Counted from the first letter of the stretch, positions 2,727-64,000 are shown. The stretch is 64,000 nucleotides of DNA from Clostridia bacterium (GCA_017516825.1 JAFXBC010000011.1:1513-65512); one strand, 5' to 3'. Notes: generated by a model not told the origin, from the letters alone. A program made the numbers and translations.

Positions 2727-4460
2727 ATGGCAAAGTTCAGCATCGGCGTTATGACCGACTCCTTCAAGCTTCCCTTTGAGCAGGGCTTGGCAAAGGCCGC
2801 TGAGGTAGGCGCTCAGGGCATCCAGCTCTACGTGGTGGACGGCGAAATGAAGTACGACACCTTTGACGACGCAAAGGTTGCCCGCGTACGCGCTCTGTTG
2901 GAGCAGTACGGCCTGGTGATCTCCGCAGTTTGCGGCGATTTCGGCGGCCACGGCTTCGAGCGTGCAGACGAGAACGCATGGAAGATCCCCGCCTCCAAGG
3001 CAGTGGCAGATCTGGCCGTCCGTCTGGGCACCAAGGTGGTTACCACCCACATCGGCGTTGTTCCCGAGGATCCCGCAGACCCCGCAAAGGCAGATACCGC
3101 CTGCGAGGCTTACCACAACATGGTTGCCGCTTGCCGCGAGATCGGTGAGTACGCCGCATCCGTTGGCGTAACCTTCGCCATTGAGACCGGTCCCGAACCT
3201 GCAGAGCGTTTGAAGGCCTTCCTGGACGACGTGAACAGCAAGGGCTTCGGCGTCAACATGGACCCCGCTAACCTTGTTATGTGCACCGGTACCGACCCCG
3301 TTGCCGCAGTTTACACCCTGGGCAATTACATCGTTCACACCCATGCCAAGGACGGCAAGGGCTTCATCATCGATCCCCGCAAGGTATACACCTTCTTCGC
3401 AGAAGGCGGTATCGAGGATCTCCGTCTTTCCGATTACTTCCTGGAGGTTCCTCTGGGCGAGGGCAACGTACCCTTCGACGCGTATCTGAAGGCTTTGGAG
3501 GACATCGGCTTTAACGGCTTCTTGACCGTAGAGCGCGAGTGCGGCGAGGATCCCTATGCGGACATTCTGAAGGCCGTGAACTTCTTGAAGAGCAAGATCG
3601 GCGACAAGAAAGTGAAGAAGATCGGCTTTATCGACTACTTCTTAGAGGAGTGGCACGCTCTCAACTATCCCCAGTTCATCCGCAACGCAGACCCGGATTG
3701 TGAGTTCGTAGTGGCTTACGCCTACGCAGAGCTGGATAAGAAGCCCGGCGGCAATATGACCACCGACGAATTCTGCGAAAAGTTCGGCATCCAGAAGTGC
3801 GATTCCATCGAAGAAGTGGTGGAAAAGAGCGACTGCCTGGTAGTCATGAGCCCCGACAACCCCGAAAGACACTGGGATCTCTGCCAGCTTCCTCTCCGTA
3901 GCGGCAAGCCCGTTTACGTAGACAAGACCTTCGCCCTCACCAAGCAGATCGCCATCGACCTGGTGAAGCTGGGCGAAGAGAACAACACCCCCTTCTTCTC
4001 CTCCTCTGCTCTCCGCTTTGCAGACGAATTGAAGACCCTTTCCAAGGAAGGCATCGTATACATCAACTCCCGCGGCCCCGGTAACTTCGACACCTACGCC
4101 ATCCACCAGCTGGAGCCCATGCTCATGCTGATGGGCAGCAACGTCAGCCGTGTCATGTCCATCGGCAGCGGCAAGTACGAATCCATGGTGCTGGAGTTTG
4201 CCGACGGCAGAAGCGCCGTGATGTCTCACTACGGCTGGAACGGCGGTATCGACTTTGAGTTCGTGGCAAGCTATGCCGACGGCACCAACGTCAAGATCCC
4301 CGCTATGTCCAACACCTTCCCCAACTTCATTGCTTCCATGCTGGACTTCTTCCGCACCGGCAAGATCTACGCCGCTCACGACGAGACCGTAGCCATCATG
4401 GCCGTGATCGAGGCAGGCAACCGCGCCCTCAAGACCCCCGGCGTCTGGGTTGAGGTTTAA
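2727..4460 (+). CDS. fusion protein: xylose-isomerase-like TIM barrel (sugar phosphate isomerase/epimerase family) + Gfo/Idh/MocA-like C-terminal half
   Basis: The first ~290 aa look like the AP-endonuclease-2/xylose-isomerase TIM fold (GVMTDSF..., TTHIGV, FAIETG, HAKDG, TVERE). After a KKVKK linker, KIGFIDYFLEEWHALNYP... resembles an oxidoreductase Rossmann half but has no GxGxxG. Confidence 0.6.
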   Translation: MAKFSIGVMTDSFKLPFEQGLAKAAEVGAQGIQLYVVDGEMKYDTFDDAKVARVRALLEQYGLVISAVCGDFGGHGFERADENAWKIPASKAVADLAVRLGTKVVTTHIGVVPEDPADPAKADTACEAYHNMVAACREIGEYAASVGVTFAIETGPEPAERLKAFLDDVNSKGFGVNMDPANLVMCTGTDPVAAVYTLGNYIVHTHAKDGKGFIIDPRKVYTFFAEGGIEDLRLSDYFLEVPLGEGNVPFDAYLKALEDIGFNGFLTVERECGEDPYADILKAVNFLKSKIGDKKVKKIGFIDYFLEEWHALNYPQFIRNADPDCEFVVAYAYAELDKKPGGNMTTDEFCEKFGIQKCDSIEEVVEKSDCLVVMSPDNPERHWDLCQLPLRSGKPVYVDKTFALTKQIAIDLVKLGEENNTPFFSSSALRFADELKTLSKEGIVYINSRGPGNFDTYAIHQLEPMLMLMGSNVSRVMSIGSGKYESMVLEFADGRSAVMSHYGWNGGIDFEFVASYADGTNVKIPAMSNTFPNFIASMLDFFRTGKIYAAHDETVAIMAVIEAGNRALKTPGVWVEV

Positions 4461-61311: not shown

Positions 61312-62559
61312 ATGTCCGCATACCGTGAGTTGATCAAAAATTTCGGGCGGATCCGCGCCTATATGCGGGAGTTTTACGTCTACGGCTTCAAGCACAGGGA
61401 GCAGTACGCCGCCAAAAGCCCCCGCTCCTACGACGACGAGCGCCGCCGGGTGGAAAGCTGGCTGGGGGATCACATGGGCTTCGTCCGCACCCCCGAGGGG
61501 AAGAACGTGTTCCTTTCCATCGACAGCCGCAGAATGGATCACAATCCCCTGTATAAGGCCTGGAAGGCGAAAAGCTTCACCGATGGGGATATCACTTTGC
61601 ATTTTATCCTGCTGGACATCCTGCATACTCCCGAGAGGGCACTTTCCCCGGGGGAGCTGTTACAGATCATAGACAGGGAGTATCTTGCTTCCTTTCAAAC
61701 GCCCATGGCATTGGACGAATCCACCCTGCGTAAGAAGCTGAAGGAGTACGTCTCCGAGGGGATCTTGACCATGGAAAAGCAGGGGAAGCGGGTGCGTTAC
61801 CGCCGTGCGGCAGACACCGTCGCCCTCCCGTCCCGGGACGTGCTGGATCTGTTTTCCGAGATCCTGCCCTGCGGTGTCATCGGCTCTTTCCTGATAGACC
61901 GTACCGAGGAACGGGACAGCCCCTTCCGCTTCAAGCACCACTACATCACGGGTACCTTGGAAAGCGATCTGATGGCCGTTTTGTTTGACGCCATGGGGAA
62001 GGGGTCTTCCGTGACGGTTACCAACGCCGCAAGGCGTACGGGAGAGCCCAAGCGGGTACGGGCGATTCCCTTGCGGATCTACGTCAGCGCGCAAAGCGGC
62101 AGGCAGTACCTGGTGGCCTACGTGCCGGAACAAAACCGCATCCGCGCCTTCCGTCTGGACTATCTTTCCGCCGTAAAGCTTGAAGAACCCACGCCCCGCT
62201 TTGGGGAATTGCGGGCAAAGCTGGATGCTATGGAGCCTTTTCTTTGGGGCGTGAACCTGAAGGACGGGAGCGGAAAAACGGAGAAGATCTCCTTCACCGT
62301 GAAGGCGGGGTACAACGAAGAATACATCGTGGACCGTCTGCAGCGGGAAAAACGCACGGGGCAGGTGGAGTGCCTGGAAAACGGGCTGTACCGCTTTTCC
62401 GCCCAAGTGCAGGACGCAAGAGAGCTGCTTCCCTGGATCCGTACCTTCTTATGCCGCATCGTGGATTTTGAATGCTCCAATATCGGCGTGAAGGAGCGGT
62501 TTTTGCGGGATCTGAAGGCCATGTATGCGCTATACGGCTTGGGAGGTGATTCGGTATGA
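61312..62559 (+). CDS. WYL domain-containing transcriptional regulator (wHTH + WYL + C-terminal extension)
   Basis: wHTH-like LSPGELLQIIDREY...TLRKKLKEYVSEGILTMEKQGKRVRYRR. The WYL core is SGRQYLVAYVPEQNRIRAFRLDYLSAVKL. Confidence 0.7.
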   Translation: MSAYRELIKNFGRIRAYMREFYVYGFKHREQYAAKSPRSYDDERRRVESWLGDHMGFVRTPEGKNVFLSIDSRRMDHNPLYKAWKAKSFTDGDITLHFILLDILHTPERALSPGELLQIIDREYLASFQTPMALDESTLRKKLKEYVSEGILTMEKQGKRVRYRRAADTVALPSRDVLDLFSEILPCGVIGSFLIDRTEERDSPFRFKHHYITGTLESDLMAVLFDAMGKGSSVTVTNAARRTGEPKRVRAIPLRIYVSAQSGRQYLVAYVPEQNRIRAFRLDYLSAVKLEEPTPRFGELRAKLDAMEPFLWGVNLKDGSGKTEKISFTVKAGYNEEYIVDRLQREKRTGQVECLENGLYRFSAQVQDARELLPWIRTFLCRIVDFECSNIGVKERFLRDLKAMYALYGLGGDSV

Positions 62560-63467
62560 TCTTCCGTGAATATTTTTCTGTCTATTACCGCACCGTGGGG
62601 AAGCTCCTGGAGGCGTTGCAGACGGGAACTCCCACGGAGAAGGAGCTTCAGGCCATCGTGCGGAGGTACGCCTTCGAGGAAAGCGCCGCCGTCATTCTCC
62701 CCGCCTTAAAACAGGGGCAGTGGCAGTTGATGAAAGAAGATTTGACCACGCCCATCCGTCACACCCCCACCATGCCCTTGACCTTGATAGAAAAGCGTTG
62801 GTTGAAGGCGGTCTCCCTGGATCCCCGTATCCGTCTGTTCGATTTTTCCGCAGAGGGGTTGGAGGACGTGGAGCCTTTGTTCACCCCGCGGGACGTTCGT
62901 GTGTTTGACCGTTACGGTGACGGCGACCCCTATGAGGACGAGACCTACCGCCGCCATTTCCGTACCGCCTTGGAGGCGGTGAAGACGGGAAAGCCGTTGT
63001 TCGTCCGTATGAAGGGGCGGAAGGGCAACGACATTTGTGCCGTTTGTATGCCTTACAAGCTGGAATACTCCGAAAAGGACGATAAATTCCGTCTCCTCAC
63101 CCGAGGTAACCGTTACGTCACCACCCTGAACCTGGCAAAGCTTACGGAATGCTGCTTCTACGAAGGTGTTTGGCAGAACCGTCGGAGCAGGGAACAGCGG
63201 GAGCAATACGCCGTTGTGCTGGAGATCCACGACCGCCGCAACGCCATGGAGCGGGTGATGTTCCATTTCGCCCACTTCAAAAAGCAGGCGGAGATGATAG
63301 GGCGGGAAAAATACCGTCTCACCCTTTGGTGCGACAAGGAGGACGATATGGAGCTTGCCATCCGCATCCTGTCCTTCGGCCCCATGGTAAAGGTTTTGGA
63401 GCCTGCACCCATGGTGGATCTTATCCGAAAAAAGTTGATCATGCAGAAAAACTGCGGACTCATTTGA
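62556..63467 (+). CDS. second WYL-like regulator (paralogous partner)
   Basis: Overlaps the first by 4 nt. Degenerate WYL-like core is PYKLEYSEKDDKFRLLTRGNRYVTTLNLAKL. The WCX-like end is AIRILSFGPMVKVLEPAPMVDLIRKKL. Confidence 0.6.
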   Translation: MIFREYFSVYYRTVGKLLEALQTGTPTEKELQAIVRRYAFEESAAVILPALKQGQWQLMKEDLTTPIRHTPTMPLTLIEKRWLKAVSLDPRIRLFDFSAEGLEDVEPLFTPRDVRVFDRYGDGDPYEDETYRRHFRTALEAVKTGKPLFVRMKGRKGNDICAVCMPYKLEYSEKDDKFRLLTRGNRYVTTLNLAKLTECCFYEGVWQNRRSREQREQYAVVLEIHDRRNAMERVMFHFAHFKKQAEMIGREKYRLTLWCDKEDDMELAIRILSFGPMVKVLEPAPMVDLIRKKLIMQKNCGLI

Positions 63468-63485
63468 GAGTTCGCAGCTTTTTTT
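63452..63485 (+). terminator. strong intrinsic terminator of the WYL operon
   Basis: 10-bp stem CTGCGGACTC / GAGTTCGCAG (one G.U) with the stop codon in the loop, then C + T7. Confidence 0.8.
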
Positions 63486-63507
63486 CCGTGTTTTTACAGG
63501 AAAACCA

Positions 63508-63516
63508 TGGTAAACT
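63508..63516 (+). promoter_or_regulatory. extended -10 element TGgTAAACT (no good -35)
   Basis: Same TGnTAAACTG form as the promoters at 8002-8011 and 53968-53977. Confidence 0.35.
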
Positions 63517-63519
63517 GTG

Positions 63520-63860
63520 CTTGCAAGAGGGAAGGCGGAGCGTTTTCTCACACGCCGGGGTGCGGCGGAGGCTTTCTCCGAGCGTATTCCCAAGTCCTCT
63601 CTCTTGAAAAAGCAGGTTCGATTCCTGCGGTATGCACTCTAAAAATGCATACTCCTATGGTTTGGGAAAGCGCTCTTCGGAGCAAAAACGGTACGCGTAA
63701 GCGTGCGAGAACGTTTTTATGCAAAACCAAGGTGCTCCCGCAGAGGCGGTAAGCTTGGGGGACACGCCGCCTTTGCAGTGAAAGGATCGCCTTGCCGGAG
63801 AGAGGATACCGCATTCTTGCATAGAAAAGAGTGCTGAATCTCTCTGCCGCGATCCTTTCA
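63520..63860 (+). ncRNA. candidate structured RNA or long structured 5' leader (unclassified)
   Basis: Six or more hand-foldable helices including T-loop-like, UUCG and GNRA hairpins and a 78-nt three-helix rod. No credible ORF (see findings). Confidence 0.35.
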
Positions 63861-63892
63861 TGGAAGCACCCTTCAGGGAAGGAAGAAAAGTG

Positions 63893-64000
63893 ATGTTTTG
63901 GAAAGACAGGAAAAAATTCAGAAAGAAGATCAGCGCCGCCTTTCCGGCCTGCTACCGAAAGGACGTGACGGCGGTGTTGAGACGTCTCCTTCCCGGGGGA
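63893..64000 (+). CDS. unknown protein, N-terminal 36 codons only (runs off window)
   Basis: GGAAGGAAG RBS, then ATG 63893: MFWKDRKKFRKKISAAFPACYRKDVTAVLRRLLPGG... Confidence 0.35.
   Translation, partial: MFWKDRKKFRKKISAAFPACYRKDVTAVLRRLLPGG

Follow-up and report, generated by a model that had tools for sequence, protein, structure and literature searches.

The bacterial Y RNA YrlA (Rfam RF02553) is reportedly a tRNA-like RNA of rsr-yrlBA-rtcBA operons (Chen et al. 2014). Circularly permuted tRNA genes are said to occur in the red alga Cyanidioschyzon merolae (Soma et al. 2007). In such genes the 3′ half, comprising the T arm and the 3′ strand of the acceptor stem, stands before the 5′ half with the other acceptor strand and the D arm, the two being joined via the acceptor end, and an RtcB-type ligase takes part in the maturation of the C. 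merolae permuted tRNAs. YrlA itself runs in the order T stem-loop, closed acceptor stem, D stem-loop (bioRxiv 10.1101/312249). A Band-7-associated tRNA-like RNA (b7a-tRNA) lying beside RtcB was predicted by Burroughs and Aravind (2016); in the account that a 2018 preprint gives of this class it was at that date unvalidated, and YrlA is described there as occasionally adjoining Band-7 (bioRxiv 10.1101/312249).

How does an apparently stray tRNA fragment in a Clostridia genome compare with these systems? The fragment lies close to the 3′ end of the window, as we call the whole stretch of 64,000 nucleotides analysed here (from a Clostridia bacterium, GCA_017516825.1), and the RNA that contains it is closest in kind to the Band-7-associated tRNA-like RNA, or to a YrlA-like RNA, of RtcB repair systems. 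Set against the summary of its description, b7a-tRNA resembles the window RNA in several respects: each adjoins a Band-7/SPFH gene within an RtcB operon and is tRNA-like but non-decoding; T, acceptor and D arms with tRNA-like loop letters are found in the window RNA, albeit in permuted order; and the theme recurs upstream of SPFH orthologs in Citrobacter, where it is controlled by RtcR, and in Burkholderia. On the other hand, the window copy is permuted, its acceptor end is closed, and it is called neither by ARAGORN nor by the Rfam tRNA model; its tRNA-like domain is one module of a ~350-nt RNA with more conserved domains; and a WYL pair, instead of RtcR, supplies the regulators at the locus.

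The gene order is WYL, WYL, RNA, a 209-aa protein (p209), SPFH/Band-7, RtcB. Directly upstream of the RNA, on the plus strand, two overlapping genes encode WYL-type regulators of 415 and 303 aa (61312–63467; bounds in the Pfam search 61312–62559 and 62556–63467), with a WYL match at 1.4e-7 and a WCX match at 2.3e-4, the latter below its cut-off. Some 420 nt of non-coding DNA separate the second of these from the next gene, which was listed as a 209-aa ORF from 63860. Alignment with two congeners (G032 and G007) and tblastn coverage beginning at residue 12 indicate that it probably starts at ATG 63894, not at ATG 63860, giving a protein of ~198 aa (63894–64000, plus strand; 3222–3818 of locus L002). 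The 209-aa protein has no family in Pfam or NCBIfam. The ~198-aa protein contains no hydrophobic segment, and it is encoded at only some loci, before SPFH or, in L026, after it. Beyond the window end lie the SPFH/Band-7 gene (L002 3840–4940; Band_7, 3.9e-24) and the RtcB gene (L002 4956–6164; Pfam 1.6e-59), the latter 1.3 kb downstream and on the RNA's strand. A Kyte–Doolittle scan detected no hydrophobic segment in the SPFH protein.

Is the tRNA fragment itself real? A sequence-only reading had described, at 63612–63637, the T stem, T loop, acceptor 3′ strand and discriminator of a tRNA, and the text is as it reported: GCAGG TTCGATT CCTGC GGTATGC A C. The T arm (63612–63628, plus strand) pairs 63612–16 with 63624–28 around the loop UUCGAUU. 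When the motif is defined as five Watson–Crick pairs ending in G-C and closing a TTCRANT loop, the window contains one copy and the 2.12-Mb assembly 14. Thirteen of the 14 are inside ARAGORN tRNA genes; the fourteenth is the locus at 63612, the only such T arm outside tRNA genes in the assembly. First-order Markov shuffles of the window give a chance expectation of 0.01 motif per 64 kb, both strands counted. We conclude, from this rate and from the placement of 13 of 14 copies in tRNA genes, that the T arm is not a product of chance. ARAGORN calls no tRNA or tmRNA gene in the window, and with the E limit relaxed to 10 the Rfam tRNA and tmRNA models still match nothing in 433 nt of the region. 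An Rfam cmscan of the region returned a 21-bit minus-strand match to Plastid-ycf2, a chance match to the T arm in reverse, and a 13-bit c-di-GMP-I match, rejected as chance. A terminator-like call on the minus strand (63628–63612), made up of the T arm and the complement of AAAAA, was rejected because no minus-strand gene ends there.

If the motif is the 3′ half of a tRNA, where is the remainder? Comparison of the homologous sequences shows the motif to be the T arm and acceptor stem of a circularly permuted tRNA-like domain, which consists, from 5′ to 3′, of a hairpin in the anticodon position, a 5-nt linker, the T arm, a loop-closed acceptor stem and a D arm. It is because of this order that neither a D arm nor a 5′ acceptor strand was seen upstream. 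The hairpin CAAG-UCCUCUCU-CUUG (63591–63606, plus strand), recorded already in the sequence-only reading, exists and is in the local MFE fold; its CUCUUG has an alternative partner, CAAGAG, at the 5′ end of the RNA (63524–63529). It is followed by the linker AAAAA (63607–63611, plus strand), which occupies the variable-loop position and corresponds to a linker of 5–7 nt in all homologs. In the acceptor-like stem (63629–63653, plus strand), 63629–36 (GGTATGCA) pairs with 63646–53 (TGCATACT) to form 8 pairs closed by a 9-nt loop, with no CCA and no free 3′ end. The complementarity of 63630–63636 to 63646–63652 had been pointed out before, in passing; the helix extends to 63629–63653 and, the mimic being circularly permuted, is the real acceptor stem. 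Next comes the D-arm analogue CCUA-UGGUU-UGGG (63654–63666, plus strand; stem 63654–57/63663–66). The earlier statement that there is no D arm therefore holds upstream of the motif and fails downstream of it, while the statement that upstream DNA lacks an exact GCATACC is correct, a wobble-rich complement, GCGTATT, being present at 63582–63588. The anticodon arm of the window copy is vestigial, and its flanks form no anticodon-like stem. Pairing of the A run that follows the D arm with the linker preceding the T arm (AAAAA/UUUUC), which would make an anticodon-like stem, shows no covariation and was rejected.

The pairing of this domain is maintained by compensatory change. Across 28 sequences the T arm is 100% paired, with changes of CG to UA and of GC to AU; in other families its stems are wholly different (GGAGG/CCTCC, GTGAG/CTCAC, GAAGG/CCTTC) but the loop is unchanged, the T-loop letters being invariant or nearly so across homologs. 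In the acceptor stem, whose hairpin is retained in the MFE fold, 98.9% of cells are paired and six of seven pairs have double-sided changes; two pairs between the acceptor 3′ strand and the downstream strand exchange CG and UA in ratios of 20:7 and 13:12. The D-arm stem covaries as well (CCAG/UUGG, CCGG/UCGG, UCA/UGA). Within the D loop G63660 is invariant and G63659 is conserved in at least 90%; by analogy with tRNA and with the structure of YrlA (bioRxiv 10.1101/312249), this GG (63659–63660) would dock on the T loop as G18–G19 does in tRNA. All sequences were re-aligned (alignment A5) to a core covariance model, R1, of 117 positions and 34 pairs. Pairing in A5 extends to 96% of cells, and double-sided changes occur at 22 of the 34 pairs; the sample consists of related homologs, and the seed of R1 included the window sequence. 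The observed values were not attained in any of 500 shuffles, and sliding the partners by 1–3 columns lowers pairing to 54% or less. The hairpin is thus conserved in homologous loci with compensatory changes, and the second of the two readings offered earlier, a tRNA mimic within a structured RNA, is supported by the motif together with such changes in about 50 homologous loci.

With YrlA the window domain has in common the permuted T, closed acceptor and D helices (63612–28, 63629–53 and 63654–66), here backed by covariation, the conserved T-loop and D-loop letters, and a location inside an rtcB operon. It differs in that the locus is without a Ro60/Rsr gene and a Ro-binding stem, the presumed partner protein being SPFH instead, and in that the D loop is only 5 nt long and no anticodon-like stem forms from the flanks. 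Within the window no complement of CUCUUG follows the D arm, and in the assembly (91% complete) no match to a TROVE/Ro gene was found. Rfam 15 holds no family for the window RNA. RF02553 does not match the window locus, scoring worse than E = 10 (threshold 69 bits), and on the window's own genome it matches true tRNA genes only. In four of five distant genomes, however, its best genome-wide match falls inside the RNA upstream of SPFH (in unit 1, see below), at 42.7, 35, 33 and 27.5 bits, scores that are below the 69-bit gathering threshold. The C. merolae genes are like the window domain in that a 3′ half precedes a 5′ half and is joined to it through the acceptor end. But theirs are true tRNAs, re-cut and used in translation, whereas the window RNA has no bulge-helix-bulge motif, splicing endonuclease, conserved anticodon or proper anticodon arm.

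The tRNA-like domain is embedded in a structured leader or non-coding RNA of about 350–360 nt (63522–63885, plus strand), which is conserved across genera. Over 364 nt the MFE of this leader is −153.9 kcal/mol (z = −4.8 against 100 shuffles), and its RNAalifold consensus from 27 de-replicated sequences contains 66 pairs, 36 of them with double-sided changes. Ahead of it, a terminator-like site of the second WYL gene (63452–63477) is followed by a T run. The 3′ half of this terminator, the T run and CCGTG make up a conserved element, GTTCGCAGC-TTTTTTT-CCGTG (63470–63490, plus strand), which is near-identical in loci (L057–L063) whose WYL proteins are just 40–50% identical; it is too conserved for a mere terminator, and may be the operator of the WYL pair. 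In L062, L064 and L065 the element is replaced by an inverted repeat, AAAGTTTGCAAC...GTTGCAAACTTT. A scan found no two-hexamer sigma-70 promoter, so that the extended −10 promoter TGgTAAACT (TGGTAAACT; 63508–63516, plus strand; homolog form TGGTAAAAT) is assigned by conservation only. The palindrome CTTGCAAG (63520–63527, plus strand) lies 3′ of this box, and TGGTARAWT followed at equal spacing by CTTGCAAG is shared by 36 of 43 homologous loci; transcription probably begins near 63522. No terminator was found between the RNA and the operon genes; the RNA is therefore transcribed as an operon leader.

The other domains of the RNA are conserved in their own right. In the 5′ domain, hairpin P1 (63560–63587, plus strand) pairs GUGCG with CGUAU around the hairpin GGAG-GCUUU-CUCC. 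The hairpin GCUC-UUCG-GAGC (63672–63683, plus strand) has four pairs, all four with double-sided changes across homologs (GUCC/GGAC, GCCG/CGGC). It is followed by the most conserved block in Oscillospirales, a long hairpin, AAAAACG-GUACGC-GUAA-GCGUGC-[GAGAA bulge]-CGUUUUU (63684–63718, plus strand), in which AACGGUAC and GUGCNAGAACGUUUU are invariant. A 13-bp helix (63778–90/63849–61) closes the 3′ domain (63778–63861, plus strand); it is fully re-coded between genera (GUGAAAGGAUCGC vs AUGCAAAAGCAGC), with many double-sided changes. The 3′ domain holds GGAUACCG (63804–63811), which is universally conserved, distant families included. Class-wide, what is conserved is GCGGUGC...GGUAUGCC in the 5′ domain and GGAUACCG in the 3′ domain. 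A long-range pairing of the 5′-domain GCGGU with the ACCGC of GGAUACCG fails in the window genus and was rejected.

How widely is the RNA distributed? Its intergenic sequence is shared by three congeners, and a DNA search within the family found collinear pieces in other genera. A pattern taken from the most conserved block (AACGGTAC ... GTGCNAGAACGTTTT) retrieved 39 loci from GTDB genomes, all of them Oscillospirales MAGs. The T arm lies 69–84 nt upstream of that block in all 39, and the order WYL, WYL, RNA, (p209), SPFH, RtcB holds in nearly all. A search of 399 sampled Clostridia genomes with the SPFH protein only gave 13 orthologs (43–57% identity) in other Clostridia families. One of these loci is cut by a contig end; in the 12 evaluable ones, without exception, a T-arm hairpin lies 300–480 nt upstream of SPFH, with unrelated T stems (GGAGG/CCTCC, GTGAG/CTCAC, GTTGG/CCAAT, GAAGG/CCTTC, GAGGG/CCCTC) and one loop. 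The element is syntenic in over 50 Clostridia genomes, the WYL pair accompanies the RNA in nearly all loci, and Subdoligranulum variabile is a carrier of the cassette. In L031 the WYL genes are unusually distant from the RNA, and a second, weak R1 match (3456–3538; 20.6 bits) lies ~1.8 kb upstream of the main RNA.

Some loci contain more of a tRNA than the window does. In other Clostridia families, two tandem permuted tRNA-like units stand upstream of SPFH, at L061, L062, L064, L065, L068 and L069. Unit 1 of such loci is a complete permuted tRNA with T arm, closed acceptor stem and canonical D arm (e.g. TAGCTCAGCGGTAGAGCA); in addition, the strand after its D arm and the strand before its variable loop form an anticodon-like stem that covaries (UAAGG/CCUUA, UGUCU/AGACA, AUCAG/CUGAU, ACACA/UGUGU). 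The window unit resembles unit 2 (D arm CCUA-UGGUU-UGGG vs GCUA-UGGUU-UAGC). Most Oscillospirales homologs (L009–L051) carry, 6–7 nt upstream of the T arm, a hairpin of 4–5 bp with a 7-nt loop YU-NNN-AA, whose flanks are conserved like anticodon-loop positions 32, 33, 37 and 38 and whose middle triplet varies (GUC 10, UUU 9, GUA 3, GUG 2, UAC 2, others); the window genus is without this hairpin. The SPFH homologue search yielded >6,000 proteins at E 1e-20 or better, the best 120 of which, as listed, are all about 50% identical or more and do not represent distant phyla. tRNA-like units also occur in the gap upstream of SPFH orthologs in Proteobacteria. This holds for Citrobacter freundii (L070 3790–3860), whose gene pair is slipin and a nucleotidyltransferase, adjoining rtcR. 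Burkholderia cenocepacia (L071 3600–3745) has one mini-helix unit and one tRNA-like unit in ordinary order, the latter with a 6-nt ‘anticodon’ loop and called tRNA-??? by ARAGORN.

Nature has also provided deletion variants. The 8-nt direct repeat AGGGAAGG occurs at 63528–63535 and at 63875–63882 (both plus strand), its right copy overlapping the ribosome-binding site of the next gene. The intervening 347 nt are absent from the congeners G032 and G007 (L007 1501–1563; L008 1501–1563), in which the operon promoter abuts the ribosome-binding site through a short leader. Searched genome-wide, G007 has no R1 match elsewhere at all and G032 only matches of 25–28 bits, none of them strong. As the RNA occupies this site across the class, the state of the two congeners is a deletion and not the result of an insertion in the others. 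G007 keeps SPFH and RtcB without the RNA, which is therefore not indispensable for the cassette. G032 (L007 1551–3053) has precisely lost the SPFH gene, p209 being followed after 24 nt by rtcB, while both WYL genes, p209 and RtcB are kept; RNA and presumed SPFH partner are thus missing together in this genome.

Could the motif nevertheless be a piece of an ordinary tRNA? The first of the two readings offered earlier, that it is a tRNA 3′-end scar or att copy left by an integrative element and marks an island boundary, starts from the established knowledge that integrases duplicate a tRNA-gene segment of just this kind. The 347 nt missing around the motif in two congeners, flanked by an 8-nt direct repeat, would suit it, as would an assembly that is 91% complete and from which several tRNA genes are absent. 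We nevertheless regard it as exceedingly improbable. The 25-mer is unique, with no second copy in the assembly at up to three mismatches, and it is absent from all 30 tRNA genes found, although in an assembly 91% complete one such gene could be missing. Matches to Phage_integrase (PF00589) are confined to contig C62 and those to Resolvase (PF00239) to C69, so that contig C70, which bears the motif, has no tyrosine or serine recombinase match. The 17 kb downstream encode the 209-aa ORF, SPFH/Band-7, RtcB, an amidohydrolase, AdoHcy hydrolase, a histidine kinase and an HtrA-like protease, with no integrase or resolvase among them, and the genes that had been supposed foreign form a conserved operon, not an island. 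Since the element is syntenic across many Clostridia families, with compensatory changes, its presence is ancestral and the gap in G032 and G007 a deletion. The odd tRNA fragment is thereby accounted for, and a false island boundary is removed. It is also very unlikely, though less so, that the domain is a cloverleaf in ordinary order, with GCGUAUU (63582–88) as the true 5′ acceptor strand, CAAG/CUUG as its sole other arm and the downstream hairpin incidental. Seven pairs are possible (G-C, C-G, G-U, U-A, A-U, U-G, U-G); opposite a C-to-G change in the 3′ strand, the window genus carries U in place of the G of others; and Burkholderia does have an ordinary-order unit upstream of its SPFH ortholog. 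ARAGORN finds weak cloverleaves in 12 of 47 sequences scanned, their 5′ acceptor strand being the conserved upstream GYGUAUG of which GCGUAUU is the window counterpart. But the upstream strand, which can pair with the 3′ strand of the acceptor in 96.8% of cells, does so by way of wobbles, with one double-sided change and at a level not above shuffled controls (reached by 27 of 500), and it is the downstream partner that covariation backs. Moreover, the D arm with its GG loop is located downstream, ARAGORN calls nothing in the window, and the hairpin state is favoured energetically: the penalty for a forced cloverleaf is 11.4 kcal/mol for the window copy and 6.7 kcal/mol for the homolog L047. 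Counted and folded, the cloverleaf with the upstream strand was weaker than the hairpin state and was rejected. P1, in which one pair switches from A-U to G-C in 8 of 27 sequences, holds GCGUAUU locally. A switch between hairpin and cloverleaf states is a minority possibility.

What, then, might the RNA do? Its fold, synteny and conservation are observed, and we think it probable that the permuted tRNA-like domain is a module of a ~350-nt operon-leader RNA that is the cognate partner of SPFH and RtcB. With its acceptor end closed, the RNA can neither be charged with an amino acid nor decode. Its synthesis would be confined to times when the WYL regulators turn the operon on; either released from the leader or active within it, the RNA would be to the soluble SPFH protein and RtcB what YrlA is to Ro60, a cognate partner. 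The elbow and L-shape of a tRNA would allow it to sit in tRNA-binding sites; it could tether broken tRNAs, or present them to RtcB, on an SPFH scaffold, or else tether tRNA-binding factors. Alternatively, it might serve as a decoy for tRNA-cutting toxins or nucleases. The ends of the transcript, its processing and its binding to SPFH or RtcB are in this model predicted from sequence. The recurrence of the order WYL-WYL-RNA-p209-SPFH-RtcB in the 39 pattern-found and 13 SPFH-found loci speaks for a partnership; against it are the failure of the window copy with the YrlA and tRNA models, the lack of an anticodon-like stem from its flanks and the lack of a Ro/TROVE gene. The main rival is a cis-regulatory role, in which the tRNA-like fold and the other domains control SPFH–RtcB expression in cis and there is no separate RNA partner, the leader binding a protein, a tRNA fragment or a damaged tRNA, or toggling its acceptor 3′ strand between GCGUAUU and the downstream strand. 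The position of the RNA between promoter and ribosome-binding site with no terminator is what such a leader would have, and if the RNA just modulates expression, one would expect what G032 and G007 show, the genes being driven from that same promoter by way of a short leader; the 96.8% pairability of the upstream strand and the ARAGORN cloverleaves count for toggling. We consider this role unlikely all the same. The alternative pairing meets here the objections of shuffles, single double-sided change and energetic cost already given, its upstream strand is locked in the covarying hairpin P1, and a helix sequestering the ribosome-binding site is not conserved across genera. The Y RNAs of Salmonella, moreover, although encoded inside an operon, function as separate RNAs (PMC7790460). 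Somewhat more doubtful is a role as the structural and targeting RNA of a soluble SPFH cage, Ro/Y-RNA-like or vault-like, that captures nuclease-cut tRNAs for RtcB, or as a bait for anticodon nucleases, whose cuts RtcB would reseal, with the fragments as a signal to the WYL pair; the varying triplets of the YU-NNN-AA loops (GUC, UUU, GUA, GUG and others) would fit lineage-specific baits.

We place the RNA as a further member of a predicted, unvalidated class; in the literature searched we found no experimental study of an RNA of the window type. SPFH–RtcB repair operons across Clostridia are constantly accompanied by a large, ornate RNA that includes a tRNA mimic, and those of Proteobacteria by other forms of it. 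With cultured carriers and natural deletion variants at hand, the cassette is a tractable case, one that bears on how bacterial RtcB finds its substrates and on what Y-like RNAs do in repair.
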